Source: a virus
Taxonomy: Duplodnaviria > Heunggongvirae > Uroviricota > Caudoviricetes
Direction: 5' to 3' (one strand)
Length of the DNA: 64,000 bases
IMG/VR virus record: IMGVR_UViG_3300020577_006835
Location: 68,588 to 132,587 of that record
Shown here piece by piece: positions 700 to 52,601 of this stretch (position 1 is the first letter of the stretch; each line of letters begins with the position of its first letter). Below the pieces are notes generated by a model. That model was not told where the DNA came from. It was given only the letters and a program-made list of their open reading frames with translations, and did no database searches. Made by a program: the position numbers and the translations under genes.

Positions 700-1042
700 C
701 CTTGACGTCGCGCAGTACGTCGACGCCCTCATGGTGCTCCTGGTCAGGCAGTACGAGGCGACGCACCTGCCCGACCTGCTGAGCGTCTTCGGACCGGAGA
801 AGCTGGCCAAGTTCCTGACGCTCTTCGCTGGCACCACTATTCAGGTGCCGTCAACACAGATACTATACAAGCTTGCGCGTGATGCAGACATCTACACGAC
901 CATGAAGCGTGGTGGAGAGGTTGCGGCGCTCGCACGCCGCTACGACATGACTCAGTCAGAGGTCGTGCAGGTGCGGGCGCGGGTAGCAAGAGTGGTGGAC
1001 GAGGTGGTTGATGGCGGAGGAAAAGCCGAACAGCAAGGATGA
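674..1042 (+). CDS. hypothetical helix-turn-helix-like protein; small-terminase candidate
   Basis: ORF 587..1042 with start moved to ATG 674 (MNERLQLLDLD); high GC3; sits two genes upstream of large terminase. Confidence 0.5.
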   Translation: MNERLQLLDLDVAQYVDALMVLLVRQYEATHLPDLLSVFGPEKLAKFLTLFAGTTIQVPSTQILYKLARDADIYTTMKRGGEVAALARRYDMTQSEVVQVRARVARVVDEVVDGGGKAEQQG

Positions 1043-1607
1043 TGTCCTTGGTCTGAACAAGACGATTCCGGTCTTGGACCTGGAGCCGTTGGAAGAAGTG
1101 TACTCTCTCGACATTGCGCGAGAGAACCTGCTCGCCCTGTCGCGAGCGGCCGCGCTTGGGGGAGAAGAGTCGGAGGCCGTGGCCGAGACGGCCGATCTGG
1201 TCACCAAGGCCTTCCAGACCGACCTCAAGACGGTCCAGATCGCCTACGGGCGCGCGATCGCCAACCGCAGGACCATCCTGCTGGGGCTCATCGACTCGAT
1301 CGAGAAGAAGCTCAACACCAAGCGTGTCCTGACCAACGACGAGCTGCTCCGCTACCAGATGAACGCGTGGCGCATGGTCATGGACATCACCAAGACCATC
1401 GAGGACACGGTGCAGAACCCGCCGATCGGTGTCGGTGGTGAGCGCTCCGCTGCCCGCGGCCCGCAGACCGAGAAGAGCGTGCAGGACCTCAAGCGTGAGC
1501 GCGCAGCGCGCGACGTCATGCGTGAGCTGCTGGAGCACGTCGACAAGGAGCTGAAGGGGCGACTCGACGTCGTCGCAGAGAGGCCTGAGAAGGAGCCGGC
1601 AGAGTGA
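1011..1607 (+). CDS. hypothetical coiled-coil protein directly upstream of terminase large subunit; small-terminase candidate
   Basis: ORF 1008..1607; stop overlaps GTG start of next gene (GTGA at 1604-1607). Confidence 0.5.
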   Translation: MAEEKPNSKDDVLGLNKTIPVLDLEPLEEVYSLDIARENLLALSRAAALGGEESEAVAETADLVTKAFQTDLKTVQIAYGRAIANRRTILLGLIDSIEKKLNTKRVLTNDELLRYQMNAWRMVMDITKTIEDTVQNPPIGVGGERSAARGPQTEKSVQDLKRERAARDVMRELLEHVDKELKGRLDVVAERPEKEPAE

Positions 1608-4600
1608 CTCCTGATGAGGTGAGGAAGAAGCTCGCCGCCTCTCTCGAAGAAGAGATCGACCTGCAGATCGAGAAGGAGAAGCAGCGCCTGTTCAGCAGTC
1701 GCGACGGGGTCGACTCAGCCCTGAAGGCTCTCATCAAGTCGAGCGGCCGCGCTGACCTGCTGTACTACTTCAAGGACCTGCCGGAGGAGTGCAAGGACCA
1801 GGTCTACGACATCCTGCGTGCCCGCCTGCAGAACCCGACCGCTCCGCGTGGCGAGTTCGAGAAGGTGATCTGGGAGCCGGACTACGAGGAGCAGCCGATC
1901 TCGATCGAAGAGTTCCTGCAGTCCAAGTATCACATCGGGAAGTGGTACTACGAGAACATCTTCCCAAAGTGGAAGGAAGAGATCACGCAGGTGATCAACA
2001 AGGGCTGCATCGAGTGGGTGCTCGGCGGCTCGATCGGTTGCGGGAAGTGTGTTGAGGCCTCCACTCTGATCAACACCGACGAAGGCTTTGCAACGATCAG
2101 AGACGTGTACTGGGGCAACACACTCGGACCAGACACCTGCTCCGCAGTCCAGGCAGAGTCAGGTGTCAGAGAAATTCAGCAGGTCCACGACGAAGGTGTC
2201 ACCGAGACCCGCCGACTGAGGACGAAGCACGGCCACGTACTCGAAGGCAGACCGAACCACCGCGTTAGGGTTCTCGGTCCAGACTTGTCCTTGTCATGGA
2301 AGACGCTCGGTGAGATCGAACCTGGTGACTGTGTTCTTGAGCAGCCTGCAACCGTGTTCGGGAAAACCGATCTGCCATCTGAAGTGGCCGAGTTGCTGGG
2401 CTGGTTCATTGCTGAGGGTGTGCGTGAGGAGGGGAGCCCGAAGGCGGCCGTCAACACGGCGCGACTACACCTGCATGACGATGAGATTGACTATGTAGAG
2501 CAGCTGGCCAGGAGAGCTGCAGAGTTCTTGCAGGCTGACGTCTCAGTTAGCCGCGAGTACAGATATGTCTCTGTAACTGGTGGCCGTGTGCGCGATGTCT
2601 TCCCTTCCGGAACCAGCAAGGTGAAAACTGTCCCGGACAGCATCCTCACAGGTACGAGGGAGACGATCTGCGCCTTCTTGCGAGGGTTCTTCAGCGGTGA
2701 TGGGCACTCCGGACCGGTGGAGTGCTCGGCTGTCACTGTGTCACAGTGTCTGGCAGAGCAGGTCCGAGTGCTGCTCACCTCACTGGGTATGTACTGCTCG
2801 CTAACAACGAGTACAGCCTCGTACCGGCTGGCCGGTGAGCGCATCGTCACAGGCGACAAGTACCTGATTCGAATCCTCGGACCAGATTCCTTGAAGCAGT
2901 TCGCTGAGGAGATCGGATTCGCTCAGGAGAGCAAGCAGCAAGCTCTGATTGAGTTCGCAACACGGTGGTCACCTAACTCGGATCACTCGTTCGCGTTCAA
3001 GCTCTCGGCTGAGCAGCTGGGTGTGCTGCGGGAGCTGCAGCCAAGGTACAAGCCGAATGAGCTGCCAGATGGCGTCAACAAGCGCACCTCGCCGCGTGGA
3101 CTTCTACACCGGCTGGCGAAGCAAGGGTGCACAGTTCGACTGCTTCGGCAGGTTGAGGCCGCCGGAGGCTTCCTGCCTGGGCCGCTTCACCGGGTCGCGA
3201 CTGGGCAGCTCCTGTTCGACACGGTGGAGAGCGTCGAGGTGAGCGAGGGTCACTGCTACGACCTGACGGTCTCTGGTGACCCGTCCTACATCAGTGGCGG
3301 GTTCGTGAGTCACAACACCACGGCCGCCATGCTGATCACTCTGTACAAGGTGTACGTGGTCTCGTGCATGAAGGACCCGTGCGGCTTCTACACGGCCACC
3401 TCGATCGTCTTCGGCTTCTTCTCGATCACCAAGGATCTGTCGAAGGACGTCGAAGCCAACATGCTGCGCACGCGCCTCATGGAGTCCGAGTACTTCAGGC
3501 GCGCGGTCGGCATGACCGAGGAGGTCGATGACCCGCGGCGTCCGAACGCGATGATCTTCAAGTTCCCGAAGAACATCAAGCTCGTCTTCGGCTCCCGCGC
3601 ACTGCACGCTCTCGGACAGGACGTGTTCGGCGGCATCATGGACGAGGTGGCCTTCGACACTTCGTCCGGTGGCCGTCAGGTGATCGAGCTGTACAACTCG
3701 ATCAAGTCCCGTATCAAGTCGCGATACATGACCCACGCCGGCCGCGTCCCCGGCATCCTGTGCATCTCGTCGTCGGCTGACAAGGAAGGCGACTTCATCG
3801 ACAAGCACATGAAGGACGCCCAGTTCAAGGACAAGACGCACATCTCGTCCTTCGCGCTGTACCAGATGAAGCCGTACAGCGGCCCGACCTTCCGCGTCCT
3901 GGTCGGTGATCAGAGCCAGAAAAGCAAGCTGCTCGACAGAGTCGACGTCGACATGGAGCAAGGCTCGATCGAAGTGGTCCCGGTCGACGAGGCGCCCGAG
4001 GGGTTCCGCGTCGAGAACGTGCCTGTGCACTACTGGGACGACTACGAGCTGGACATCGAGAAGGCGCTCAAGGACATCTCCGGCATCCCGCTCTTCTCGG
4101 CCTCGCCGTTCTTCCCCAACAGGCAGAAGATCTTCCAGCTGATCGACGAGAACAGGAAGCACCCGTTCTCTGTCGACGAGCCGATCCTGACGACCGCTGA
4201 CGACGACTACACGCTGGAGTCTCTGTTCGACCGGGAGGCGCTCTTCGTCAAGCCGGACCCGTACGAGAACCGCTTCCAGATGCGGATCAACCCGGGCACG
4301 CCGCGCTTCTTCCACGTCGACTTGGCCAAGAGTCAGGACTCGGCGGGCCTGGCCTGTGTCCACCTGTTCGGCTCGAAGAAGGTGCTCCGCATCGGCCAGG
4401 ATGGCCGGCCTGGTGAGACCTACCTGCCGTACGTCTACGTCGACTTCATGGTCCGTCTCAGGCCGCCGGCAGAGAAGGGCGAGGAGATCGACTTCTCGAA
4501 GATCGTCTCCTTCATCTTCTACCTGCAGCAGCTGGGCTGCCCGATCGGCGAGGTGACCTTCGACCGGTACCAGTCGAGCCACTCGATCCAGCTCTTCAAG

Positions 4601-4987
4601 AAGCAGCACATCGAGTCGCGTGAGATCAGCATGGACATCACGCCCGCGCCGTACCTGACGCTGCAGTCAGCGTTCAACGCCGGCTGCATCTCGTACTACC
4701 GGTACCCGACGTTCCTGACCGAGGCGACCAGGCTGCAGAAGGACCCCAAGACCGGCAAGGGCGACCACCCGATCGGAGGGTCGAAGGACGTGCTCGACGC
4801 CGTGACCGGCGCCCACTACGCCTGCTTGATGTCGAAGTCGACCGAGATGCAGATGGCTGCGCCCCACCTCATCGTGCGCGGCATCACACCCCCGAGGCCG
4901 ACGGCCCCGGAGGTCAAGAACTGGGCGGCCAAGGACTACAAGGACTTCGACTCCATGGTCGACATCTTCGATGACAGCCTCCGCTGA
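1604..4987 (+). CDS. terL: terminase large subunit (ATPase/nuclease), interrupted by one intein
   Basis: Extein reconstitutes Walker A GGSIGCGK|TTAAML once the intein is removed; Walker B-like GGIMDEVAF; about 704 aa extein. Confidence 0.85.
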   Translation: MTPDEVRKKLAASLEEEIDLQIEKEKQRLFSSRDGVDSALKALIKSSGRADLLYYFKDLPEECKDQVYDILRARLQNPTAPRGEFEKVIWEPDYEEQPISIEEFLQSKYHIGKWYYENIFPKWKEEITQVINKGCIEWVLGGSIGCGKCVEASTLINTDEGFATIRDVYWGNTLGPDTCSAVQAESGVREIQQVHDEGVTETRRLRTKHGHVLEGRPNHRVRVLGPDLSLSWKTLGEIEPGDCVLEQPATVFGKTDLPSEVAELLGWFIAEGVREEGSPKAAVNTARLHLHDDEIDYVEQLARRAAEFLQADVSVSREYRYVSVTGGRVRDVFPSGTSKVKTVPDSILTGTRETICAFLRGFFSGDGHSGPVECSAVTVSQCLAEQVRVLLTSLGMYCSLTTSTASYRLAGERIVTGDKYLIRILGPDSLKQFAEEIGFAQESKQQALIEFATRWSPNSDHSFAFKLSAEQLGVLRELQPRYKPNELPDGVNKRTSPRGLLHRLAKQGCTVRLLRQVEAAGGFLPGPLHRVATGQLLFDTVESVEVSEGHCYDLTVSGDPSYISGGFVSHNTTAAMLITLYKVYVVSCMKDPCGFYTATSIVFGFFSITKDLSKDVEANMLRTRLMESEYFRRAVGMTEEVDDPRRPNAMIFKFPKNIKLVFGSRALHALGQDVFGGIMDEVAFDTSSGGRQVIELYNSIKSRIKSRYMTHAGRVPGILCISSSADKEGDFIDKHMKDAQFKDKTHISSFALYQMKPYSGPTFRVLVGDQSQKSKLLDRVDVDMEQGSIEVVPVDEAPEGFRVENVPVHYWDDYELDIEKALKDISGIPLFSASPFFPNRQKIFQLIDENRKHPFSVDEPILTTADDDYTLESLFDREALFVKPDPYENRFQMRINPGTPRFFHVDLAKSQDSAGLACVHLFGSKKVLRIGQDGRPGETYLPYVYVDFMVRLRPPAEKGEEIDFSKIVSFIFYLQQLGCPIGEVTFDRYQSSHSIQLFKKQHIESREISMDITPAPYLTLQSAFNAGCISYYRYPTFLTEATRLQKDPKTGKGDHPIGGSKDVLDAVTGAHYACLMSKSTEMQMAAPHLIVRGITPPRPTAPEVKNWAAKDYKDFDSMVDIFDDSLR
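2048..3316 (+). mobile_element. intein (423 aa) with LAGLIDADG homing-endonuclease domain, inserted in terminase P-loop after GK
   Basis: Begins with Cys after GCGK (codon tgt at 2048); ends ...GFVSHN followed by Thr (aac at 3314-3316, acc next); internal LGWFIAEG and FLRGFFSGDG LAGLIDADG-like motifs; block F/G YDLTVSGD..VSHN. Confidence 0.8.
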
Positions 4988-4998
4988 GCTGCGATACC

Positions 4999-5304
4999 AT
5001 GACCAAGCGTCAGGCGATCAGGGCTACGGCCAAGCGGATGGGTATCCAGGACGCTGTCCTGGAGAAGCATGTCAATGAGTTCTTCAAGTACGTGGCGGAG
5101 GCTCTGGTCCTTGGTGAAGAGGTTTGGATCTCTCCGATCGGCAAACTGGTCGTCAAGGAACTGAAAAATACCAAGCGTCGAAGGTTGTGGCTGGAACCGT
5201 GCGCCTCAATGAAGTCGACGCTGAAGCGAAACCCGATCGAGGTTCCTGACTGGTACCGGAGTCTGGGAGTGGTGGTGGAGGAGGAACATGGCACAGCAGA
5301 ATAG
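4999..5304 (+). CDS. hypothetical protein
   Basis: ORF track; coding-like codon usage; between terminase and portal. Confidence 0.5.
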   Translation: MTKRQAIRATAKRMGIQDAVLEKHVNEFFKYVAEALVLGEEVWISPIGKLVVKELKNTKRRRLWLEPCASMKSTLKRNPIEVPDWYRSLGVVVEEEHGTAE

Positions 5305-8300
5305 GGGCAGGTTCAGAGACCTCGTAGCCCGACTCTTCACGCGCGACGAGATCATCGAACCGGTCCGCATGGACGGTGAGCCGTCCCTGAGTCCGATCTC
5401 CTCGTACTACCGGACGCGGATGGAGCTGAGTTCCAACCGCATCAAGAGGTACAAGGACTACCGCGACATGGGCGAGGACACGCTCATCAGCGGTGCGCTC
5501 GACATGTACGCCGACGAGGCCGCACAGTTCGACCGCCAGGAGGGGAGGACCGTCTGGGTCGTCTCCAACAACAAGGAGGTCGAGAAGGCCATCCACACCA
5601 TGCTTGACGCGACCGAGATGGAGGAGCAGATCCCCGGTCTCGCGCGCTACCTGGCTCAGCACGGTGACAACCCGGTCCGTCCTCTGGCAGACAAGAACAA
5701 GGGCATCGTGGCCATGGAGTTCTTGGAGGCCGAGGACTTCGAGCGCCAGGTCGACAAGTACGGGCGCTTGACCGGTTTCAGGATTCTCCCTCTCGGCGAC
5801 CGCAGCTTCGACCCCTGGGACATCGTCCACTTCAGGATCATGAACCGCACGCAGACCGTGCGGCAGGGTGGCAGCATCTACGGCACGTCCGTGCTGGAGA
5901 ACGCTCGCAAGACGTGGAGGCAGCTCTGCCTTGCCAAGGGGACCACGATCTGGACCACGGCAGGGCCGAAGAGCATCGAGGACGTCCGGGCCGGCGACGA
6001 TGTGTTCTGCCACGACCCTGACACCGGCGAGACGGCTCAGACACGCATCGTGGCTGCCAAGGCGATGGGTCGGCAGAAGCTCGTCCGGGTGCAGACCGAG
6101 CACCGGGAGCTGTTCGTCACCCCGGATCACGGCCTGCTCGCGAAGACGCGTGGTGGTGAGTTCGTCTACAAGAAGGCCGAAGACTTGGTCCAGAGCGAGG
6201 GGCAGGCGGGCAAGCTTTTCCGCGATGCGGATCAGCTGGTGCTGCCCAGCTTGGATGGCGGCGTCGACCACCACGTCATCAAGCTGAACCCGAAGGACTA
6301 CTATGTCCACCTGAAGGAGCCAGCGCAGTACGACTCGGACGGCGTCGTGGGTCGGCTGTCGGACTTGGGGCTCAGCACGAGCCTGAAGAACGCACACGGG
6401 TTCCTCGCCGCAAAGCGTGGCATCCGACTCGATGACTTCTGCAAGCTGCGCCGGGCGTTCTTCGGTGGTCAGCACCCGGACATGGTGGTGACCTGCGGCA
6501 AGAGCACGCGGCCGACGGTGGCGAGCTTCGGTCCGGCCAACGACCGGCCGTTCTTCGTCGCTGGCAGTGACTTCGTGCGTCTCCTAGGTTTCATGCTCGG
6601 CGACGGCTGGGTCAACGAGGGTGGGCGGATCGGCTTCGCGCTCGGCGTCGACGAGAAGCAGAACGAGGCCTACCGGCAGCTCTTCGAGGAGATGTTTCAC
6701 GTCGAGATGGCGACGGTGCCTTCGAAGCCGGGGCAGGGTGGGCAGCACTACGTCGGCTCGATCGACATCGAGAAGATCTTCAACGCGGCCGGGTTCGTGA
6801 CTGGGTTCGCGAACAAGGTCGTCCCGGAGTGGGCCTACAACCTGTCGCCGTGGCTCAAGGTGCACCTGATCCGGGGCATCATGGACGCCGACGGGTGTGA
6901 GGGCGACGGTCGCCTCACCGTCGCCAACGAGCAGCTCGCGCGTGGCGTGCACACGCTCTGCCAGCAGGCTGGCCTGCGGGTGAGCCGGAAGATCAGCACG
7001 CAGGATCGTGAGGACCGTCAGCGCTCGTACCGGTTCTGGGTGGAGAAGATCCCGCTCATGGATCGGTGGATGCCAGAGGCCGTGGTGTACGAGCGTGTCA
7101 CGCACGTCGACCCGGCTGGTGAGGGCGAGACGTACGATCTTCAGGTCGACGACGACCTGCACAACTTCGTCGCCAACGGCGTGGTGTCGCACAACACGCT
7201 GCTCGAAGACCAGCTCGTCATCTACCGTCTGGAGGTTGGCGGCAGGCACCGCGTCTTCTACATCGACGTCGGCACCGCTTCGCACGAGCAGGCGCTGGCC
7301 ATCACCAGGAAGTACGAGCGGCAGTTCGGCAGGAAGCAGTACTTCAACCCGCAGTGTCTGACTGCCGACACCAAGGTCTTCACGCTCGACGGCCGTCAGT
7401 TGCGAATGGATGAGATGGCGGCTGAGGTTGCGGCTGGCAAGCAGCAGTGGGTGTACAGCTACGACATCAACAAGAAGAAGGTTGTCCCGGGTAGAGTGTT
7501 GTGGGCAGGCAAGACCGGCGCAGCGGTGCGTGTGTGCCGTGTCCAGCTCGACAACGACACGTCCGTCATGTGCACGTTGGACCACCGGTTCCTGGTGAAG
7601 CGTGACGATGGCAAGCGTCACGAGTACGTCGAGGCGTCGAAATTGCAGCCTGGCGATTCGATCACGCCGGTCAACTTCAAGCTGTCTGACAAGGGTCAAG
7701 GTGACCTACTGTCCGGTTACAGAATGGTGTGGCAGGACAGGTTCGACAACTACCAGTATGTGCACCGTGCTGTAGCCCACGCGGCGATTGGCACCCCGAG
7801 GAGAGCCGACGGCACGTTCCAGCCGGACTACCTGGTACACCACCAGGACTTCAACAAGCTCAACAACGCGCCTGAGAATCTGGAGTGGAAGACTCACCAG
7901 GACCACGTTGACCACCATGAGAAGCACTCGAAGAACCTGGAGCTGGGCCGCATCAGGCTGCAGGAGATTCTCAGCGGTGAGGAGCGTGAGGAGTACCTCT
8001 CCAGGCGTGAGAGGGCGAGACAGGAGGCTATCGCAGCGAACCCGGAGCTGCGTTCAAGACTGGCGGAGGCGTCGGCGGCAACGCTGAGAGCGTGGAACAA
8101 GTCGGACAGGGCCAAGGTCGAGCGGAAGAAGTCGATGACAGCACGCTGGCAGGTCAAGCCGGCTGAGATCACTGACTCACTGGTTCGGGGCAAGGTGAAC
8201 TCGGTCTTCGCGGAGTTGAAGCGCAGGAACCTTCCGATCACCGAGGAGGCGTGGAACTCAGTTGCTCGTCAAGGGCAGATCTCGTGGGTGAAGGCGAAGA

Positions 8301-9286
8301 CCAGGTACCCAGAGATGTTCAACTTCAACCACAAGGTCGTCTCCGTGACGGTCGGTGGCAAGGAGGACGTCTTCGACATCGTCGTCGAGCAGTACCACAA
8401 CTTCGCTGTGGCTCTCGAAAACGAGAGCGGCGTGTTCGTGCACAACAGCGGCGAGTGGACCTCGCGCTTCACACCGCTGCAGCTCACGTCCGAGATCTTC
8501 TGGCCGATCCGCGGCGAGTCGGCATCCCGGATCGAGTACCTGGGCACCGACCCCAACGTGCAGGGAATCGCCGACCTGGACTACTTCCGCAACAAACTGT
8601 TCGCCAGCTTGAAGATCCCCAAGGCGTACATCGGCGGCGACGAATACTCGTCTGCCCGCTACGGCCTGGCGCAGATCGACATCGCCTTCGCACGCTCCGT
8701 GCAGCGCCTGCAGCGCGCCCTGATCAACGGCATCACGCGCATGGGTCAGATCCACCTCGCCTTCCTGGGCAAGGACCCGACCCAGGCCGAGAACCAGTTC
8801 CAGATCATGATGAGCCCGCCGTCGACGCTGGACCAGGAGCAGCGCATGGAGGCGCTGGACCTGTCACTCACGCTGTCGATGAAGATGAAGCAGATCGGCG
8901 AGGCGCTCGGCCTCGATGACCAGGCTCTGAACGCGTACATCCAGAAGACCATGCTCGGTCTGACGCCGTACGACCTGAGCCGCATCACGGCGCAGATGCC
9001 AGGCGCGCAGCAGGATCAGGGGTTCAACCCACAGGTCATGGACCACCTGATCAGGACCGTCAACGGAGACCCGGAGGCGGCCGGCTACCGCCCTCGTGGC
9101 GAGCGTGGCGACGACATCTTCCCCAAGCTGGGTGACCAGGGGATTCTGGCCGAGTCGCTGGTGGGCTCCTACAGGTCGGAGGCTGACAAGCTCGGCTTCG
9201 AGGAGTTCTTCGGCGAGACCACCGAGGAAGAGGTCATGAGGCTGCGCTCCAAGATGCGGGTGTCTGACAAGGCTCCGAAGGGCTGA
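5288..9286 (+). CDS. probable portal protein carrying two inteins (extein about 545 aa)
   Basis: Position immediately after terminase; after removing the two intein-like insertions a portal-sized (about 545 aa) protein remains. Confidence 0.65.
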   Translation: MAQQNRGRFRDLVARLFTRDEIIEPVRMDGEPSLSPISSYYRTRMELSSNRIKRYKDYRDMGEDTLISGALDMYADEAAQFDRQEGRTVWVVSNNKEVEKAIHTMLDATEMEEQIPGLARYLAQHGDNPVRPLADKNKGIVAMEFLEAEDFERQVDKYGRLTGFRILPLGDRSFDPWDIVHFRIMNRTQTVRQGGSIYGTSVLENARKTWRQLCLAKGTTIWTTAGPKSIEDVRAGDDVFCHDPDTGETAQTRIVAAKAMGRQKLVRVQTEHRELFVTPDHGLLAKTRGGEFVYKKAEDLVQSEGQAGKLFRDADQLVLPSLDGGVDHHVIKLNPKDYYVHLKEPAQYDSDGVVGRLSDLGLSTSLKNAHGFLAAKRGIRLDDFCKLRRAFFGGQHPDMVVTCGKSTRPTVASFGPANDRPFFVAGSDFVRLLGFMLGDGWVNEGGRIGFALGVDEKQNEAYRQLFEEMFHVEMATVPSKPGQGGQHYVGSIDIEKIFNAAGFVTGFANKVVPEWAYNLSPWLKVHLIRGIMDADGCEGDGRLTVANEQLARGVHTLCQQAGLRVSRKISTQDREDRQRSYRFWVEKIPLMDRWMPEAVVYERVTHVDPAGEGETYDLQVDDDLHNFVANGVVSHNTLLEDQLVIYRLEVGGRHRVFYIDVGTASHEQALAITRKYERQFGRKQYFNPQCLTADTKVFTLDGRQLRMDEMAAEVAAGKQQWVYSYDINKKKVVPGRVLWAGKTGAAVRVCRVQLDNDTSVMCTLDHRFLVKRDDGKRHEYVEASKLQPGDSITPVNFKLSDKGQGDLLSGYRMVWQDRFDNYQYVHRAVAHAAIGTPRRADGTFQPDYLVHHQDFNKLNNAPENLEWKTHQDHVDHHEKHSKNLELGRIRLQEILSGEEREEYLSRRERARQEAIAANPELRSRLAEASAATLRAWNKSDRAKVERKKSMTARWQVKPAEITDSLVRGKVNSVFAELKRRNLPITEEAWNSVARQGQISWVKAKTRYPEMFNFNHKVVSVTVGGKEDVFDIVVEQYHNFAVALENESGVFVHNSGEWTSRFTPLQLTSEIFWPIRGESASRIEYLGTDPNVQGIADLDYFRNKLFASLKIPKAYIGGDEYSSARYGLAQIDIAFARSVQRLQRALINGITRMGQIHLAFLGKDPTQAENQFQIMMSPPSTLDQEQRMEALDLSLTLSMKMKQIGEALGLDDQALNAYIQKTMLGLTPYDLSRITAQMPGAQQDQGFNPQVMDHLIRTVNGDPEAAGYRPRGERGDDIFPKLGDQGILAESLVGSYRSEADKLGFEEFFGETTEEEVMRLRSKMRVSDKAPKG
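5927..7195 (+). mobile_element. portal intein 1 (423 aa) with LAGLIDADG endonuclease domain
   Basis: Starts CLAKGTTIWT (tgc at 5927); ends YDLQVDDDLHNFVANGVVSHN followed by Thr (aac 7193-7195); internal LLGFMLGDG and IRGIMDADG motifs. Confidence 0.75.
7355..8446 (+). mobile_element. portal intein 2 (364 aa) with HNH endonuclease domain
   Basis: Starts CLTADTKVFTLDG (tgt at 7355); ends DIVVEQYHNFAVALENESGVFVHN followed by Ser (aac 8444-8446); internal HNH motif DYLVHHQDFNKLNNAPENLEW..H..DHH. Confidence 0.7.
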
Positions 9287-9288
9287 TT

Positions 9289-9870
9289 GTGGGCTCCATC
9301 AAGAACCTCATCGACTACGTGAACACCGTCGACGAGATGGTGGAGGACGCCAAGATGTACCTGGACGCCTACGAGAAGGCCCTGCCGTTCACAGGGGACC
9401 GCCGTGAGGTTGTTGTCGACTGGAGCGATCAGGCGTACTACAACGCCGACATGAGCGTGAAGGTAGGCGGAGCCAACACAACGGTGCAGGAGGTCGAGTG
9501 GGACGCCTGGGCCAGGCGGGAGATCGAGAACGCCGAGCTGAAGTACAAAGCGATCCTGAATCGCAACATGGAAGAGGTCAGGGAGGAGGCTCGCAACAAG
9601 ATTGCCGACAAGCTCGCCGCTGACGCGGCCAGGGTCAGGATCGGCAGACTCGACAGGGGCACTCTGATGGGTATCTCTACCGGTCCGACCCCAGAGCTGG
9701 TGACCAAGAAGGCTGGCAAGTCTACATACTACCAACCGCGCCGTCCCAGCCAACCCAACCTCAACCTGCCAGAGCGTGAGGTCATCACCCCGTCCAGGAG
9801 GCGCTCGGAACCGCCACCGCCGACCCGTGACCTGGACCCGAAGCGGGAGATCTCGCTCGAAGATGATTGA
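9289..9870 (+). CDS. hypothetical protein with C-terminal KREISLEDD tail
   Basis: ORF track (GTG start); ends ...KREISLEDD with stop overlapping next start. Confidence 0.55.
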   Translation: MGSIKNLIDYVNTVDEMVEDAKMYLDAYEKALPFTGDRREVVVDWSDQAYYNADMSVKVGGANTTVQEVEWDAWARREIENAELKYKAILNRNMEEVREEARNKIADKLAADAARVRIGRLDRGTLMGISTGPTPELVTKKAGKSTYYQPRRPSQPNLNLPEREVITPSRRRSEPPPPTRDLDPKREISLEDD

Positions 9871-10753
9871 CCAGCGCACCTTGGAGGAGCGTCTCGACTA
9901 CCTGCGCGAGATGCTTGACATCGACGAGTCGAAGCACGTCGCGACTCATCGCGGTGTCCCTCACAGACAGGACTATCTCGACCTTCACTACGATCGGTAC
10001 CCGCACAAGCAGACCGACAAGGAAGAGAAGCGCACACGAGCGGCTGTGCTCGCTGCGGCCGGCATCGCCTCGCTGATCGGCATCTCGAAGCAGAAGATGC
10101 TGCAGCAGTTCTACATGGCCGAGAAGTACCTCAAGCTCTCCAAGACGGCCAAGACACCGTTCGAGAGGCAGAAGGCTCTCAGGCAGTTCGAGTCCATGAT
10201 CCAGCTGATCAAGGCCGGGCTCAGGCAGTCGTACACCAAGAGCTACCGGCTGGGCGTGTCGTCGAGCGGTGTGGGCGGCCAGTTCCGCACCCGGGGCTTC
10301 ATGTCGCCCGAGGAGGCGCGCTGGGTCGAATCGGCTTTCAAGCACGAGATGCGCTACCTGAACCAGCTGGTCAACGACGTGAAGGCGGGCAAGTCTGTGC
10401 CCACGCTGGCCAACAGGATCGGGCTCTACGCCAAGGCGCTGGCGGCGGCTTACAACTCAGGCCAGGTCATGGCCACGAACCGGGACACGCTGATCCACTG
10501 GAGGCTCAGCCAGGACCCGGAGGTGCAGCACTGCGACGACTGCCTGTATCTGGCAGGGCTCAGCCCGTTCGTTCGTGATACGCTGCCCACGGTGCCCAAG
10601 GCGGGCATCTGCAGGTGTTCGAGCAACTGCCGCTGCGAGCTGGAGTACGAGGTCGTCAAGCAGGACGTGGCCAGTCAGGTGCGCGCCGGCAACATGAGCA
10701 AGACGTACGTGGTCCGGAAGATCCGAGACCGCCAGAGAGGCCGGTATGCTTGA
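9863..10753 (+). CDS. hypothetical protein with C-terminal Cys-rich motif (CDDC...CRCSSNCRCE); possible head morphogenesis protein
   Basis: ORF 9776..10753 with start moved to ATG 9863 (MIDQRTLEERLDYLREM), which overlaps the previous stop. Confidence 0.5.
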   Translation: MIDQRTLEERLDYLREMLDIDESKHVATHRGVPHRQDYLDLHYDRYPHKQTDKEEKRTRAAVLAAAGIASLIGISKQKMLQQFYMAEKYLKLSKTAKTPFERQKALRQFESMIQLIKAGLRQSYTKSYRLGVSSSGVGGQFRTRGFMSPEEARWVESAFKHEMRYLNQLVNDVKAGKSVPTLANRIGLYAKALAAAYNSGQVMATNRDTLIHWRLSQDPEVQHCDDCLYLAGLSPFVRDTLPTVPKAGICRCSSNCRCELEYEVVKQDVASQVRAGNMSKTYVVRKIRDRQRGRYA

Positions 10754-11918
10754 AGAGCACGATGACGACATCCCAGTCCTGTCCCTCGAAGACCCGGAGA
10801 TCGAGGAGAACGACGGGGAAGCAGTCGAGAACGCGGTCAAGGGCTCGATCCGCTACGCCTTCATCGGCTCCGGACAGGGTGGCTCGCGGCTGGCGGCCGA
10901 GGCGTACAAGATCGGCTACCGCAAGACGATCTGCATCAACACGGCCCCGCAGGACCTGTCGGCGATCCAGATCCCCGAGGAGCAGAAGCTCTGCCTCGAC
11001 ATCGGTCCAGGGGGCGCCGGCAAGGACCCGGCCCGCGGCGAGGAGGCGACGACCAAGCATCAGCAGGCGATCTACAACCTGATGAAGCAGGTCTTCGGCA
11101 AGCAGATCGACCACATCATGATCTGCGCCGGTGCCGGCGGCGGTTCGGGCGGAGGCTCGGTGCTGCCGCTGATCATGATCGCCAAGCGCTACCTCCAGTT
11201 CCTCGGCCATGTAGAGGATCTTGACAAGCGCGTCGGTGTGGTGCTAACGCTCCCTACCAACAGTGAGGTCGTCGCAGTCCGGGTGGCGTGGAACGCCTAC
11301 CAGGTGGCCTCCAAGGTGTCGGACTTGGCCGAGGCGGGCTCCATCGCGCCGCTGGTCGTGGTCGACAACGACAAGGTCCTGGAGCTGAGACGCGGCATCC
11401 CGATGGTCAAGATGTGGCCAACGGTGAATTTCGATGTGATGAACCTGTTCCACATCTTCAACTTGCTGTCGTTGAAGCACTCATCGTACACGTCCTTCGA
11501 CCCGTCCGACTACGCGTCGGTGGTCAAGGCAGGCGGTCACACGATCATGGGTGTGACGTCGGTCAAACCGGAGCAAGCACAGAACGAAACAGAGATCATG
11601 CGGGTGGTGAAGTCGTCGCTCGACCGCACGTTGCTGGCAGATGGGTTCGACCTGTCGACGGCGACGCACGTGGCGGCGATCGTCATGGCCGGCCGGCAGA
11701 CGCTGGAAGAGGTCCCTGGACTGGCCGAGGTGATCGAGTACGTGTTCAGCATGCTGGGCACGCTGACCAGCGCGCAGCTGGTGCATCGCGGAGTGTACGA
11801 GGACTCACGGCCAGGGCTCAGGATTTACACGATCGTCTCCGGACTGCAGCGTCCGCTCACCAGGTATCGTAGACTCGAAACGCTCTCGCGTGAGAGGTAC
11901 CCTTTCACAGAGCGTTGA
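10746..11918 (+). CDS. tubulin/FtsZ-superfamily GTPase (PhuZ/TubZ-like phage tubulin)
   Basis: FIGSGQGGSRLA (N-terminal GTP loop), INTAPQDL, GPGGAGKDPARG, and tubulin signature-like ICAGAGGGSGGGS align with FtsZ GVGGGGxNA / VNTDAQAL / GLGAGANPEVG / AAGMGGGTGTG. Confidence 0.8.
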   Translation: MLEEHDDDIPVLSLEDPEIEENDGEAVENAVKGSIRYAFIGSGQGGSRLAAEAYKIGYRKTICINTAPQDLSAIQIPEEQKLCLDIGPGGAGKDPARGEEATTKHQQAIYNLMKQVFGKQIDHIMICAGAGGGSGGGSVLPLIMIAKRYLQFLGHVEDLDKRVGVVLTLPTNSEVVAVRVAWNAYQVASKVSDLAEAGSIAPLVVVDNDKVLELRRGIPMVKMWPTVNFDVMNLFHIFNLLSLKHSSYTSFDPSDYASVVKAGGHTIMGVTSVKPEQAQNETEIMRVVKSSLDRTLLADGFDLSTATHVAAIVMAGRQTLEEVPGLAEVIEYVFSMLGTLTSAQLVHRGVYEDSRPGLRIYTIVSGLQRPLTRYRRLETLSRERYPFTER

Positions 11919-11930
11919 GGTAGACTGCAC

Positions 11931-12005
11931 AGCGACGTGGCTCAGCTGGCCTAGAGCGCCTGGCTCATAACCAGGAGGTCGTCGGTTCGAATCCGACCGT
12001 CGCAA
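11931..12005 (+). tRNA. tRNA-Met (anticodon CAT)
   Basis: Cloverleaf by eye: D-arm GCTCAGCTGGCCTAGAGC, anticodon loop CTCATAA, T-arm GTCGGTTCGAATCCGAC; coordinates +/-2. Confidence 0.75.
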
Positions 12006-12010
12006 CTCGG

Positions 12011-12084
12011 TGCGGGGTGGAGCAGTTGGAAGCTTGCCGGGCTCATAATCCGGAGGTCGCAGGTTCGAGTCCTGCCCCCGCTTC
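12011..12084 (+). tRNA. tRNA-Met, initiator-like (anticodon CAT)
   Basis: Strongly resembles bacterial tRNA-fMet (GCGGGGTGGAGCAG...GGGCTCATAA...GGTTCGAGTCCTGCCCCCGC); coordinates +/-2. Confidence 0.75.
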
Positions 12085-12189
12085 TCTTCGACTCCCGTCG
12101 TCCCGTCCCCGCGGGGCGGCGCCGAGCAGACCAGCCAATCGGGGGCCAGGCAATTGTGCCTGGCTCCTGTTGGCCCTGCAGATGCCCTG

Positions 12190-12498
12190 ATGAGCGCACT
12201 ACGCATGGTAGAGGTAGCCACCTCCCGCTTTCGCGAGGTGACCGCTGTCACAGCCGTTGGGAGCAACGTGCGCGTGACGGTCGACTACCGCATGAACAAC
12301 AAGTTCCTGCCCGCCTTCCTGGAACAGCTTGACCGCGCGCTGCACGCCACCTACAACGCGGCGCTCATCGTCGAACCCTTGAGCGATGACCAATTCGCAG
12401 CGGACCCGAACTTCGAACGCACACCTGGAACTGGACCGATCGTGCCGACAACGTGGGACTGGATGAACAAGAAGGGAGAGAAGAATGGCAAGCGTTGA
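12190..12498 (+). CDS. hypothetical protein
   Basis: ORF 12154..12498, start moved to ATG 12190 (MSALRMVEV). Confidence 0.45.
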   Translation: MSALRMVEVATSRFREVTAVTAVGSNVRVTVDYRMNNKFLPAFLEQLDRALHATYNAALIVEPLSDDQFAADPNFERTPGTGPIVPTTWDWMNKKGEKNGKR

Positions 12499-12826
12499 AG
12501 CGAAGAAGTGTGATCAGTGTGGAACGGTGGAGCACGGCGAGCAGCTGGGCAGCTGGGTAGGGCTGGCCAAGCCGAACGGCGTCATGCTGATCGGCCCCAT
12601 CTACGAGGTGGCGGCCACGGTCAAGCGCCTGTACGGCGACTTCTCCGGGATCGAGGACATCGACCCGAGACAGCGCAGCGTCAAGGAGCTGTGCAGCCAG
12701 GGCTGCCTGCACGAGATGGTCTCGGCCCACTTGCAGAAGGGTGAGATGCAGGGTCAGAGCTACGGCCGGCGCCGCTCGATCGGCGTCACCGTGGACGACC
12801 TGACTGGTACGGTGGGAGTGGCGTGA
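12485..12826 (+). CDS. hypothetical protein
   Basis: ORF track; RBS GGAGAGAAGA upstream. Confidence 0.45.
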   Translation: MASVEAKKCDQCGTVEHGEQLGSWVGLAKPNGVMLIGPIYEVAATVKRLYGDFSGIEDIDPRQRSVKELCSQGCLHEMVSAHLQKGEMQGQSYGRRRSIGVTVDDLTGTVGVA

Positions 12827-13218
12827 ACGACCCAGCCTACACGCTGACCTGGGAGGAGTACCTGGCCGACATCGGGGAGCTGTGCGAGATCATCCGCTCA
12901 GCTCAGCTCTCCGTGTCAGCTGTGTACGGCATCCAGCCGCACGGCGTCATCCCAGCCTTCATCATCGCACAGCAGTTGCGCGTCGAGTACACGCCGCTCG
13001 CTCTGCCGGTGAGGATGAACGGCGGGACCATGCTCTGCGTCGACGGCTTCTCCAACCGTGGCGAGGATCTGGTCGCGTACCAGCGCGACTCCAAGACAGC
13101 TGCCGTGTACGTCAGGGACCGCCCGGACATCATCTTGCAGCCTCACTACTACGCGAAGGCCATCGAGGGCCTGATCCGCTTCCCTTACGAGCAGTCGCGC
13201 TCCCTCACAGGCCGCTAG
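12823..13218 (+). CDS. hypothetical protein
   Basis: ORF track (GTG start overlapping previous stop). Confidence 0.45.
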   Translation: MNDPAYTLTWEEYLADIGELCEIIRSAQLSVSAVYGIQPHGVIPAFIIAQQLRVEYTPLALPVRMNGGTMLCVDGFSNRGEDLVAYQRDSKTAAVYVRDRPDIILQPHYYAKAIEGLIRFPYEQSRSLTGR

Positions 13219-13260
13219 GATTCGCTGACTAGGAAGCCGACCCGATTCAAGCTAGCTTCA

Positions 13261-13452
13261 GTGCGTATGGGTTGGTTTACAAGGAAGACGGAGATCCAGA
13301 AGAGGGACCTCCGGGCTGACAAGTTGGCGAAGGCCATCAAGAAGATCGGCGGCTTCGAAGTAGTCGAGTGGAAGGCCACTGACCACGAAGAGCGCCCTGG
13401 TGGCTCAGACCGCACGGTGCGTGTCTCGACGATCAAGCTCGTCGAACGCTGA
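13261..13452 (+). CDS. small hypothetical protein
   Basis: ORF track. Confidence 0.35.
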   Translation: MRMGWFTRKTEIQKRDLRADKLAKAIKKIGGFEVVEWKATDHEERPGGSDRTVRVSTIKLVER

Positions 13453-13479
13453 CGCACGAGTGGATGTGGGGAGGGTGAG

Positions 13480-13704
13480 ATGGATGGTGCGTTCCCGAGG
13501 TGCCTGAAGTGCAAGCACGGCACGATGCTGCCGCTGAGTGATTTCCATCACGGCGGAGCGTCGATGCAATACAAGGCCTGGGCCTGTCACAACGACGAGT
13601 GCCGGGCCATGGTGAAGATCGACAAGGGCTGGGTCAGCTACGAGCGTGGCTCGCCGCACCCGCGGCCAGAGAAGTCGTTCAACACCGCCCAGTACGACCG
13701 GTAG
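13480..13704 (+). CDS. small zinc-ribbon-like protein (CxxC...C..C)
   Basis: ORF track; CLKCKHG...WACHNDEC. Confidence 0.45.
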   Translation: MDGAFPRCLKCKHGTMLPLSDFHHGGASMQYKAWACHNDECRAMVKIDKGWVSYERGSPHPRPEKSFNTAQYDR

Positions 13705-13860
13705 CGGCCCTCTCGGCCTGCACCTTGTCGTAGGCCGCCTCGGCCTGCTCCTGGGTCGTGACCACGCCCTCACGGGCCTGCGTCGCGATCAGGGTGGCCA
13801 CCATGAGCCGGCGCCTCTTCACCGGGTCCGTGAGGATCGCCCGGGTGTCGACGCGCCGGC

Positions 13861-14085
13861 TCACAGTTGCTGATCCGTGCTGAACGTGATGGGCGCCGGC
13901 AGACTCCCTTCTCTCCAGCTGGCCCAGGATCGCTGCAGCTCGTCGAACATCCGATCCGCTAGCGGGCCGGTGAATCTCTGTGTGCTGCCGTCCCGCCACG
14001 TGATAGTGGTTGAGGCTGAAGCCCCGGCACAGTTGCTCAGAGTGCGGACGTCCTCCCAGTTGATGGAAAGCTTTGCCTGTTTCAT
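13861..14085 (-). CDS. hypothetical protein
   Basis: ORF track; begins minus-strand island. Confidence 0.4.
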   Translation of the reverse strand: MKQAKLSINWEDVRTLSNCAGASASTTITWRDGSTQRFTGPLADRMFDELQRSWASWREGSLPAPITFSTDQQL

Positions 14086-16528: not shown

Positions 16529-17127
16529 GCTTGAGCCCTCTCGCGCGCCCGCTTCTCGCGCATGTGGGTGCGCATCGCCTCACGTTTCGCTTCGCCGCGC
16601 CGAGCGTGTGTCGCCGCGTACGTGCACACCGGCCCGCAGAACTTCTGCCGCCTGTACCTCACGAACACCGCCTCACAGTGTGGGCACTTCCGATACGGGA
16701 ACGGCTGTTCCCGAAGGAGCCTCACAAACTCCGCGACAAGCATCTGCTCGACGGTTCGTGTCTCCCAGATCTCTACGAGCATCTCCCGGGAGGTGTGGAG
16801 GTAGGTTAGGACTGACGCACCAGGCACCGGCAGTCTCACCCCCTCCCACTGCAGGAGGCAGCCCAGGTGGAAGTTCACTTTCGGTAGAAGGGTTCTGAGC
16901 AGATTGGCGGGGTTTACAGCTGGCTCCGCGACAAGAACAACGGAGACCGGCGCAGAATCACGCAGGTTGTGCACCTTGAACTTGGCCGCCTCTTCGACCT
17001 GCTCCTTCAGGCGCGCGTGGGCGGACTCTGACAGCATGTCTACGTCATCGTACTCGGCTGACGCCAGCGCTGCGAACAGCGCTTTCACAGCCCCATGGTT
17101 CTTGAATGCCAACCTGTTGCCGCTCAC
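16525..17127 (-). CDS. hypothetical protein with C-terminal zinc ribbon (CPHCE...CGPVC)
   Basis: ORF track. Confidence 0.5.
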   Translation of the reverse strand: MSGNRLAFKNHGAVKALFAALASAEYDDVDMLSESAHARLKEQVEEAAKFKVHNLRDSAPVSVVLVAEPAVNPANLLRTLLPKVNFHLGCLLQWEGVRLPVPGASVLTYLHTSREMLVEIWETRTVEQMLVAEFVRLLREQPFPYRKCPHCEAVFVRYRRQKFCGPVCTYAATHARRGEAKREAMRTHMREKRARERAQA

Positions 17128-18566
17128 TTGGCGTACCTCGACTTGAAGTTGTTGATGTAGAGCAGAGCGCCCAGCTCGGCGACCTGGTCGGCGAAGTCCC
17201 TGGACAGGTGGTCGCTCACGTCCTGGTGGGCGAACTCGTGCAGGAGGAGCTTGAGCACCTCGACCACGTTGTCCTCACGAAACCAGTGGTGGCTGAGCCG
17301 ACCCACGTTGAAGGTGAGCGGGCTGCCAGGGCCGTAGGTGGCGGCGTAGGGCCAGGTGATGTCGCTCGTGAACTGCACCACGAGGTTCTTGAACCCCAGC
17401 GTGTCCTTGCAGATGATCTGCGAGAAGAGGGCGACCCACTTCATGCCCTCGGTCCACTTCTCGCGCGGGATGAGCTTCTGCTCGTCGCCGGTCTCGGAGT
17501 AGGGCTTCGGGCTCGGCGTCACCTGGCCGGCAGGCAGGGTTGCTGCGAACCGCTTCGTGTTGGCGTGCTCCTCGCGTGACTGTGAGCCTCCGTAGATCAG
17601 CTTGTAGCCCTCGCTGACGGCGATGTTGTTCGCCTCCGGGTCTGAGGGGTCGAACATGACCCGCTTCTCACCCCAGCGGAGGTCCTGCACCCTCTTGAAG
17701 GCCTCCTCCTCGACACGCTCGTCACCGGCAGCTTCACGCACCCAGGCCGAGGTCGCATCCTCAACAGAGAGACGGTGGTGAGACGCGTTCAGCGCGTGCG
17801 TGCGCAGAGCCCGCAGATAGCTCGGCGGCACGTTGTCGCGCTCGATGGTCAGCGGGACGCGCTGCAGCACGTTGTAGTGCCACTTGTCGCCTGACTCGAC
17901 GATCGGGATGCCCATCTCGTAGATCAGGGCTGTCTCGCCAGAAGCGGGCTCGTACAGCTCGACGACGGTCTTGCGCTGCGTGCGCCGCAGCTCCCCATCC
18001 TCGCCGCTGAACTCGGTCTGCAGCGTGGCATCGAGCGAGGTGACGGCGGCCCGCCGCGGGATCTCGATGCCGTTCAGCGTGACCGTGACACCGGCGGGTG
18101 GGATGATAGTGCGGAACGCGTCCATCATCTCTGTCATCTCCGCCTTGGTCGCGCGGAGCCTCGCGGTGAACGTGGTGCCTCGAATCGTGCCCGCGGTGCG
18201 ACTCAGGTGTCGACCGTGGTCGTCGAAGATGAGGGCGCCGGTCGTGCTCGCGATCTTCGCATGGTCGCAGAGCGCAAGTACAAACTTCTCGCCGATGTTG
18301 AAGCGACCGCGCAGGGTGGCGTCGGGCTTCTTCTGACTGGGCGCGAACAGCGTGTACGCGTCACGCAGGTCCTGGAAGCCTACCTCCGAATTGTCCCGGA
18401 CCTCCATCTCGACCCGGCCGCGGAACACGGACTCGGTGAGGGCAACCGAGACCCGATCGGACCCGGCATCGACCGCGTTCTGATACAGCTCGAAGAACAC
18501 GAAAGCCTTGCCCCTGCGTGCGACTTGCTGCGCCAGACCTTTCCGATCCACCTCGAACCATTCCAT
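17124..18566 (-). CDS. GHKL/Bergerat-fold ATPase-like protein with C-terminal HExxH (zincin-like) motif
   Basis: N-terminal ELYQNAVDAG (N-box ExxxNAxDA), DNSEVGF (G1), GRFNIGEKF (G2); C-terminal LLLHEFAHQ. ORF 17124..18599 starts at TTG inside its own promoter, so the start is placed at ATG 18564-18566, which has a GGAGG RBS. Confidence 0.55.
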   Translation of the reverse strand: MEWFEVDRKGLAQQVARRGKAFVFFELYQNAVDAGSDRVSVALTESVFRGRVEMEVRDNSEVGFQDLRDAYTLFAPSQKKPDATLRGRFNIGEKFVLALCDHAKIASTTGALIFDDHGRHLSRTAGTIRGTTFTARLRATKAEMTEMMDAFRTIIPPAGVTVTLNGIEIPRRAAVTSLDATLQTEFSGEDGELRRTQRKTVVELYEPASGETALIYEMGIPIVESGDKWHYNVLQRVPLTIERDNVPPSYLRALRTHALNASHHRLSVEDATSAWVREAAGDERVEEEAFKRVQDLRWGEKRVMFDPSDPEANNIAVSEGYKLIYGGSQSREEHANTKRFAATLPAGQVTPSPKPYSETGDEQKLIPREKWTEGMKWVALFSQIICKDTLGFKNLVVQFTSDITWPYAATYGPGSPLTFNVGRLSHHWFREDNVVEVLKLLLHEFAHQDVSDHLSRDFADQVAELGALLYINNFKSRYAK

Positions 18567-18587
18567 GCGTCGTACCTCCAGTCTCAG

Positions 18588-18616
18588 ATTAGACCACAAC
18601 CATCAATCTTTGTCAA
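18588..18616 (-). promoter_or_regulatory. sigma70-like promoter TTGACA-N17-TCTAAT (minus strand) for gene 17124..18566
   Basis: Reverse complement reads TTGACAaagattgatggttgtggTCTAATctgagactGGAGGtacgacgcATG. Confidence 0.5.
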
Positions 18617-52550: not shown

Positions 52551-52601
52551 ACCAACAATCAACTTGGAGGCGTCACCACGTTGCGCTACTACGTGGGCAC
52601 G

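Follow-up and report, generated by a model that had tools for sequence, protein, structure and literature searches.

Two models describe the tubulins encoded by phages. In the first, PhuZ works together with a nucleus built of chimallin; in the second, TubZ belongs to a TubZRC module that partitions plasmid prophages. The gene described here is located in a 64,000-nucleotide stretch of DNA (hereafter, the window) from an uncultured member of the Caudoviricetes, the IMG/VR record IMGVR_UViG_3300020577_006835 (positions 68,588 to 132,587 of that record), and it encodes a tubulin-like protein of 390 residues (Table 1). An earlier note, made from the sequence alone, had described this open reading frame as a PhuZ/TubZ-like homolog of tubulin and FtsZ, and the exact coordinates and length that it gave are borne out; the frame is on the plus strand and starts with ATG. 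That the protein is a genuine GTPase of the tubulin/FtsZ superfamily is virtually certain. The fuller reading is that the gene belongs to an uncultured jumbo phage (at least 200 kb, high-GC) outside the phiKZ-like nucleus formers, and that its product is a functional GTPase of the TubZ/RepX lineage whose filaments organise the infected cell. Taken as a whole, this reading is judged somewhat probable.

The superfamily placement was obtained with several kinds of search. Two Pfam families match the protein above their curated cut-offs, namely Tubulin (PF00091) with 34.6 bits (cut-off 33; E=3e-8) and TubZ-like_C (PF22453) with 26.2 bits (cut-off 26), and PF21493 (TubZ_C) is a precomputed annotation on it. 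In a single-sequence search of the PDB, the best match is RepX of pXO1 (E=7e-18), with FtsZ at approximately 1e-6 and TubZ-Bt at 3e-4, and a phmmer comparison with the TubZ of phage c-st gives E=0.017. With a profile built from 50 relatives, which are 43-62% identical to the window tubulin, RepX is reached at 2e-31, archaeal FtsZ and CetZ at approximately 1e-17, TubZ-Bt at 1e-13 and c-st TubZ at 1e-12; the best 60 PDB hits of this profile include no PhuZ. Together with the RepX match and the invariant loops described below, the Pfam results support the earlier claim of homology to tubulin and FtsZ. Both profile and fold place the protein in the TubZ/RepX lineage. It is not a PhuZ, as judged from an hhalign comparison of the family profile with phiKZ PhuZ (probability 3%, E=0.014, over 89 N-terminal columns). 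As a separate matter, assignment to the FtsZ equivalog TIGR00065 was rejected, as the score is 49.7 bits against a cut-off of 295.2.

To describe the fold, an AlphaFold2 model was computed on the alignment of the 50 relatives. The model has a predicted local distance difference test score (pLDDT) of 90 and a predicted template modelling score of 0.88, and confidence is low only in the first ~35 residues and at the extreme C-terminus. It displays a two-domain architecture, with a Rossmann-like GTPase domain, an H7 core helix and a C-terminal activation domain. In a Foldseek search of the model, TubZ/RepX from B. cereus (4ei7) is the first hit with a template modelling (TM) score of 0.77, followed by TubZ-Bt (0.72), CetZ (0.69) and FtsZ (~0.6). 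A further structure comparison ranks RepX/TubZ (4ei7) highest with a value of 38.8, ahead of CetZ2 (34.3), TubZ-Bt (33.8), c-st phage TubZ (32.0), FtsZ (28.6), BtubA and the eukaryotic/Asgard tubulins (about 25) and three structures of PhuZ (21-22), and the next unrelated fold falls below 10. Based on this ranking, the protein is placed in the TubZ/RepX structural lineage of the superfamily. In a library of viral structures, an uncultured-phage 'FtsZ' matches with a TM score of 0.82 and the PhuZ of phage Noxifer with 0.51.

The loops that bind and hydrolyse nucleotide are all present. The four motifs quoted in the earlier note, GSGQGGS, INTAPQDL, GPGGAGKDPARG and AGAGGGSGGGS, occur in the order given there, beginning at residues 41, 64, 87 and 128. 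Across the 50-sequence alignment, the columns G41, G43, Q44 and G46 of the T1 loop, G90, G92 and G98 of T3, and G131, G132, G133, G135 and G137 of T4 are invariant, as are N65, D70, L169/P170/E174, N183 and D207/N208. The T7 loop likewise has the invariant columns D252, D255 and Y256, and in HMMER alignments its F-D252-P-S-D255-Y segment pairs with V-D-F-A-D in the FtsZ of M. jannaschii and with F-D-A-S-E in RepX. The acidic pair of this loop activates GTP hydrolysis in the adjoining subunit of a filament. Failure of a profile search to reach the superfamily, or loss of the T7 acidic residues, had been named beforehand as evidence that would overturn the assignment; the profile does reach the superfamily, and D252 and D255 are retained in this protein and in all 50 relatives. 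The fold, the full T1-T6 set of nucleotide loops and the T7 acidic pair are intact, and they are kept unchanged across a large family. In light of the established biochemistry of tubulin and FtsZ, this combination points to head-to-tail polymerisation with polymerisation-activated hydrolysis of GTP.

The family to which the window tubulin belongs is extensive. More than 120 relatives reach E<1e-100 in a word-indexed search, and their contigs measure up to 241 kb. In an exhaustive hidden Markov model search, the number of clusters (at 50% identity) is 350 with a threshold of E<=1e-30 and 1271 with E<=1e-10. Among 61 IMG/VR loci, neighbouring genes encode baseplate, portal, terminase large subunit (TerL), ribonucleotide reductase (RNR) and DnaB-like helicase proteins, which confirms that these loci belong to phages. 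Relationships were examined in a bootstrapped neighbour-joining tree, a distance method, rooted on RepX and with phage G also placed outside the family. In this tree, the family is monophyletic relative to phage G and RepX (bootstrap 95%), and the window tubulin groups with that of locus L010 (96%) and then with that of L007 (90%). L010, the closest relative, has the same TerL-HU-portal-296aa-tubulin gene order as the window. In L007/L011 (241 kb), SbcCD is followed by a homolog of the 296-aa gene and then by the tubulin, with no portal, and in L008 and L012 the tubulin is found amid PolA, RecA, DnaB and RNR genes.

A more distant clade (34-39% identity, about 28 loci among L026-L062) has its own fixed arrangement, in which an ERCC4 nuclease gene, TerL, a ~650-aa gene, the tubulin and a gene for a capsid-like protein of 390 aa follow one another (for example, L033:3208-9126 and L045:4171-15627). 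The stop codon of the ~650-aa gene overlaps the tubulin start, and the tubulin of this clade is embedded in the head module. The ~650-aa protein shows no BLASTP similarity to the portal of the window and has no Pfam or PHROG hits; by gene order, it is described only as occupying the portal position. The family also varies in length. Members of 800-980 aa with two separate matched stretches (P0130, P0173, P0174, P0178, P0222, P0231, P0241 and P0254) may be fused tandem tubulins or may carry large N-terminal additions, and other members have N-terminal extensions of 150-250 aa.

A short peptide near the N-terminus is a hallmark of the family. Within it, Leu14 is kept in at least 90% of the 50 relatives and Glu15 in all of them, and the pLDDT of this region is below 50, so it is predicted to be disordered. 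The pattern P-x-L-x-L-E-[DQ]-[YF]-E is found in the upper clade of the tree, in phage and planctomycetal members alike, and its counterpart in the lower clade is a related VPDIPLP motif. Phage G gp138 lacks the peptide, and nothing in the RepX crystal construct aligns with it, the profile alignment beginning at RepX residue 7, which corresponds to query position 25. In FtsZ, TubZ and PhuZ, the peptide used for partner binding or assembly is C-terminal; the N-terminal arrangement seen here is therefore a real difference. At the other end of the protein, Leu367, Pro370 and Arg373 are kept in at least 90% of the relatives, and in the profile alignment a GL.LPKR junction is common to the window tubulin and RepX. 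The last 25 residues are basic, with a net charge of +4. PhuZ, in contrast, has an acidic C-terminal tail, which reportedly mediates filament assembly.

The identical tubulin protein was found on 18 contigs, one of which is in the 0.2-1 Mb class, and the phage genome is therefore jumbo-sized. The sequence covered here comprises the 64-kb window and ~14 kb of flanks, or ~78 kb of at least 200 kb. As the earlier note stated, the genome is GC-rich, with a G+C fraction of 0.58-0.66 across the window and a value of about 62% for the phage. Against cultured phages, a near-DNA search with the first 20 kb returned only matches the size of tRNAs. The upstream flank encodes a FEN-like exonuclease, a RecA-like recombinase, Cpn10, SbcC and SbcD, and the rest of the window includes genes for an AAA ATPase, an SPFH protein, a CCA-adding enzyme, a UDP-galactopyranose mutase, HNH endonucleases and nucleotidyltransferases. 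The earlier note saw no obvious chimallin in the window, and this observation withstands closer inspection: a tblastn search with phiKZ gp54 gave no match in the window at E<=10, PHROG and Pfam scans of the largest open reading frames were negative, and neither flank contains a shell-like protein. Based on the ~78 kb covered, chimallin is probably absent from this genome.

The tubulin gene is located in a block of genes that are closely packed and all encoded on the plus strand (positions 1008-13704, with gaps of -17 to +120 nucleotides (nt)). It is tightly co-directional with the TerL, portal and 296-aa genes, with overlaps of -4 to -17 nt. In agreement with the earlier note, it lies downstream of terminase and portal, with two open reading frames intervening. 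A promoter and terminator scan of positions 1-14000 found sites no more numerous than in shuffled sequence, and the transcription unit is therefore proposed from gene packing alone. The placement of an HU-like gene between terminase and portal is also kept in L010. The inteins of the portal have their splice boundaries at residues 214-636 and 690-1053, and the second contains an HNH endonuclease. Once spliced, the portal shares at most 29% identity with portals of the T4 superfamily from very diverse phages, and no chimallivirus is among its best hits.

The gene directly upstream of the tubulin encodes a 296-aa protein that is a candidate partner. Its homologs adjoin the tubulin in L010 (2980-3876) and in L007 (8474-9406)/L011, and no other neighbour accompanies the tubulin throughout the closest relatives; this pairing holds even in the absence of a portal gene nearby. 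The protein has six invariant Cys residues in its C-terminal part, clustered in the pattern HC.DC…PF..TLPT.P..G.C.C..NC.C. Its PHROG match, phrog_24776, is of unknown function, searches of Pfam and NCBIfam gave no family for it, and a word-indexed search returned three near-identical proteins only. A resemblance of the Cys-rich C-terminus to minor head proteins of the Mu F/SPP1 gp7 type was considered; no profile confirmed it, and it is not claimed here.

Table 1 Features of the window (positions are those of the window; aa, amino acids).
Feature	Position	Strand	Basis or remark
Terminase-large-subunit-like gene with LAGLIDADG intein	1604-4987	+	phrog_17415 (terminase large subunit), phrog_9666; Pfam LAGLIDADG_3, Intein_splicing
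HU/IHF-type DNA-binding protein gene between terminase and portal	4999-5304		Overlaps portal start by 17 nt
T4-type portal gene with two inteins	5288-9286	+	Pfam Portal_T4, Intein_splicing, Hint_2, HNH_3
193-aa gene	9289-9870		Upstream of 296-aa gene
Gene for 296-aa basic, Cys-rich protein	9863-10753	+	Stop overlaps tubulin ATG by 8 nt
TubZ-like tubulin/FtsZ-superfamily GTPase gene	10746-11918	+	ATG start, 390 aa
Conserved N-terminal peptide PVLSLEDPEI, aa 10-19, in predicted disordered acidic leader	10773-10802	+	Family hallmark, putative docking motif
T1 loop GSGQGGS, aa 41-47, nucleotide-phosphate binding	10866-10886	+	Aligns with GxGxxG motif of FtsZ/RepX
T3 loop region GPGGAGKDPARG, aa 87-98	11004-11039	+	Aligns with GAG..P..G motif of FtsZ
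T4 tubulin signature AGAGGGSGGGS, aa 128-138	11127-11159	+	Aligns with GGGTGTG of FtsZ and RepX
T7 (synergy) loop FDPSDY, aa 251-256	11496-11513	+	HMMER alignments to FtsZ and RepX
C-terminal GL..P..R junction, short helix (aa 371-382) and basic tail	11841-11915	+	Conservation, DSSP, charge
Two tRNA-Met genes directly 3' of tubulin stop	11931-12084	+	ARAGORN; only real local repeat
tRNA genes in six clusters	11931-50250 and 55811-57361		20 genes
491-aa protein of divergent pair	17124-18599	-	Weak GHKL/sacsin-type ATPase hits
538-aa AAA ATPase of divergent pair	18665-20281	+	
688-aa protein with SPFH/Band 7 domain	30980-33046		Unusual in a phage
Sugar-modification cluster	52581-55778		UDP-galactopyranose mutase, family-2 glycosyltransferase, methyltransferase

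Several further features of the window are listed in Table 1. The two neighbouring packaging genes, the terminase-like gene and the portal gene, together hold three inteins. Strain variants of the phage show an in-frame indel of 33 bp in the gene for the 193-aa protein, which has 182 aa in L001, L002, L004 and L005 (L001:8577-9125), and the tubulin protein is identical across these variants. The count of about 21 tRNAs in the earlier note needs a small correction, as ARAGORN finds 20 in the window; these accompany the phage's own CCA-adding enzyme and include paired isoacceptors (two each for Met, Lys, Glu, Gln and Pro, four for Arg and three for Leu).

The conserved machinery and its context suggest how the protein may work. 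Subunits would stack head to tail, so that the T7 loop of one enters the GTP pocket of the next, and the outcome would be dynamic filaments that depend on GTP and are driven by its hydrolysis. As judged from the genomic context, such filaments could serve as the phage's own cytoskeleton and organise the infected cell. The most likely task would be the positioning of replicating or packaging DNA, or the movement of procapsids, carried out with neither a chimallin shell nor a TubR/tubC centromere adaptor. Contact with cargo or a partner would probably be made by the acidic N-terminal peptide (P-x-L-x-L-E-D-[YF]-E) and, in the lineage of the window, probably also through the translationally coupled 296-aa protein. 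The protein is thus taken to be a phage cytoskeletal GTPase that forms filaments and represents a new subfamily, and its probable role in the cell is to position phage DNA or capsids.

Several observations weigh against this reading. Polymerisation, GTPase activity and localisation are inferred for every member of the family, and proteomics did not detect the homolog in phage G (PMC12484599). The part of the genome beyond the ~78 kb covered may encode a shell protein or an adaptor. The neighbours of the tubulin also vary, with replication and repair genes in L007, L008 and L012 and structural genes in the window, L010, L017, L023 and the lower clade, and such mixed neighbourhoods mean that synteny singles out no one role. 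Finally, the 296-aa protein is confined to the clade of the window, L010 and L007.

Among the other explanations, the one that survives best is a type III (TubZRC-like) partition motor, which would segregate the phage genome as a low-copy plasmid in pseudolysogeny or as a plasmid-prophage, in the manner of c-st, pBtoxis and pXO1. The closest characterised relatives by both sequence and fold, namely RepX, TubZ and c-st TubZ, are consistent with this role. The upstream gene, which is translationally coupled and encodes a basic, Cys-rich protein, is placed relative to the tubulin as tubR is to tubZ, and pXO1 itself has a 111-aa open reading frame directly upstream of repX. However, no tubC-like iterated or tandem repeats were found near the gene or in the window, with no tandem arrays within 8 kb, and the small flanking open reading frames gave no helix-turn-helix or winged-helix hit. 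No integrase, repressor or Par genes are present among the open reading frames scanned in the window, and no adaptor-like neighbour is common to the whole family. Relatives in PLSDB are at most 27% identical, and all 198 plasmid hits are RepX/TubZ proteins of Bacillales. A partition motor is consequently regarded as unlikely.

A host-directed role draws on relatives outside phages. In this view, the protein would influence how host cells divide or are shaped, for instance through co-assembly with a tubulin-family protein of the host or by taking its place, and would not serve to move phage components. A GTDB scan with one genome per species recovered at least 9 loci with 40-46% identity to the phage tubulin (L073-L081, on GTDB genome contigs; a lower bound across phyla). 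Among the matches listed, eight of the nine are in metagenome-assembled genomes (MAGs) of Pirellulales or Sedimentisphaerales, and one is in an unclassified MAG. The surrounding genes are cellular in kind: MltA, DnaB, BamA and LpxD in L073, UvrA in L077, SOUL/glutathione peroxidase and RNase HII in L080, and a transglutaminase membrane protein in L081. Tandem tubulin paralogs occur in L077 (7939-9624 and 9923-11104) and in L080 (9722-11116 and 11431-12687). In the tree, the cellular sequences form one clade inside the phage family with a bootstrap of 99%, and the support for their sister group is 18%. Planctomycetes are described as lacking FtsZ (PMC5147048), and no description of these tubulin-like genes was found in the searchable literature, outside of which subscription journals lie.

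This chromosomal clade suggests that a host counterpart able to interact with the phage copy may exist, and cell filamentation has been reported for some jumbo phages (PMC13282480). On the other hand, the G+C content of the phage is about 62% compared with 46-52% for the planctomycetal MAG contigs, and nothing ties the phage to a planctomycete host. The low FtsZ equivalog score and the lack of an FtsZ-type C-terminal peptide also argue against a host-directed role, and the retention of all catalytic residues speaks against a simple poison subunit. Action on host division or shape is accordingly considered unlikely as well, slightly more so than partition. Independent of this question, the planctomycetal clade provides a testable candidate for a tubulin-family protein in FtsZ-less cells and illustrates the exchange of cytoskeletal genes between viruses and their hosts.

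A PhuZ-type spindle that centres and rotates a chimallin-enclosed phage nucleus and carries capsids, as in the phiKZ-like Chimalliviridae, is very improbable: the phage is jumbo-sized and encodes a tubulin near its portal and terminase genes, and PhuZ filaments do traffic capsids (PMC13282480), but the profile comparison with phiKZ PhuZ fails, neither the chimallin nor the PhuZ of phiKZ has a tblastn match in the window at E<=10, no shell-like protein is found in the window or its flanks, the spliced portal is distantly T4-like with no chimallivirus in its best hits, the C-terminal tail is basic rather than acidic, and Cpn10 is encoded upstream, with HSP10 reported in jumbo-phage groups other than the one with tubulin and multisubunit RNA polymerase (Iyer et al.).

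Of the explanations weighed, a phage cytoskeleton of the TubZ/RepX lineage is the preferred reading, and a bolder version of it can be formulated. The family could represent a third kind of phage cytoskeleton, apart from the PhuZ-nucleus and TubZ-TubR-tubC systems, in which cargo contact is made by the conserved acidic N-terminal peptide instead of a C-terminal tail, the partner comes from head and packaging or from replication, the carriers are large phages that form no nucleus, and one exchange with Planctomycetota has taken place. This version is speculative, and although it is given somewhat more weight than a partition motor, we consider it improbable. If it is true, the planctomycetal copies, some of which are tandem pairs, could be an unrecognised tubulin-family element of the cytoskeleton or of division. 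An environmentally widespread family (350 clusters, on contigs of up to 241 kb) keeps the catalytic machinery of a filament without either known context, and many large phages may thus use a self-made cytoskeleton in ways that have yet to be described.

Comparison with the known systems brings out both shared and distinct features. RepX and TubZ (pXO1 RepX, 4ei7; pBtoxis TubZ-Bt, 2xka/3m89) are only 24-27% identical to the window tubulin. They are plasmid genes of Bacillales, whereas the window tubulin is encoded by a phage, and no adjacent TubR or tubC iterons were found. Relative to RepX, the protein has the additional conserved N-terminal peptide and a short C-terminal tail. The TubZ of c-st (3v3t/4xcq), a phage of C. 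botulinum, is related to it weakly in sequence and is part of a TubZ-TubR-tubC-TubY partition system; c-st, a plasmid prophage, has a defined centromere and an adaptor, neither of which was found near the window tubulin. Compared with archaeal CetZ and FtsZ, the window protein lacks the C-terminal peptide of FtsZ and has a phage context. The PhuZ proteins of Chimalliviridae (phiKZ gp39, 201phi2-1 gp59 and that of Goslar) are likewise superfamily GTPases of jumbo phages, and the window tubulin probably resembles them in its working, as a dynamic filament that the phage builds to organise the infected cell.

The only relative found in a cultured phage is gp138 of phage G (Donellivirus gee), a 'putative FtsZ-like cell division protein'. 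It is 24% identical by tblastn over 88% of the protein and is matched by hhalign over its full length with a probability of 99.6%. Phage G is likewise a giant phage that forms no nucleus, and gp138 differs in falling outside the family and in missing the N-terminal peptide. In the literature, gp138 is only mentioned as an uncharacterised FtsZ/tubulin-like GTPase (PMC12484599). The GenBank product field of gene 138 (L071:5989-7119, JN638751.1) reads 'xxxxx', an apparent placeholder that recurs in the 2025 paper on phage G. Neither of the phage tubulin systems studied to date fits the locus described here, which is probably neither a PhuZ system nor a TubZRC module. Phage tubulins as such are already known, and standard profiles suffice to recognise this one, which makes the basic finding unsurprising; what is new is a large, uncharacterised TubZ-lineage family in large phages other than chimalliviruses, with its N-terminal peptide and with a chromosomal branch in a phylum that lacks FtsZ.

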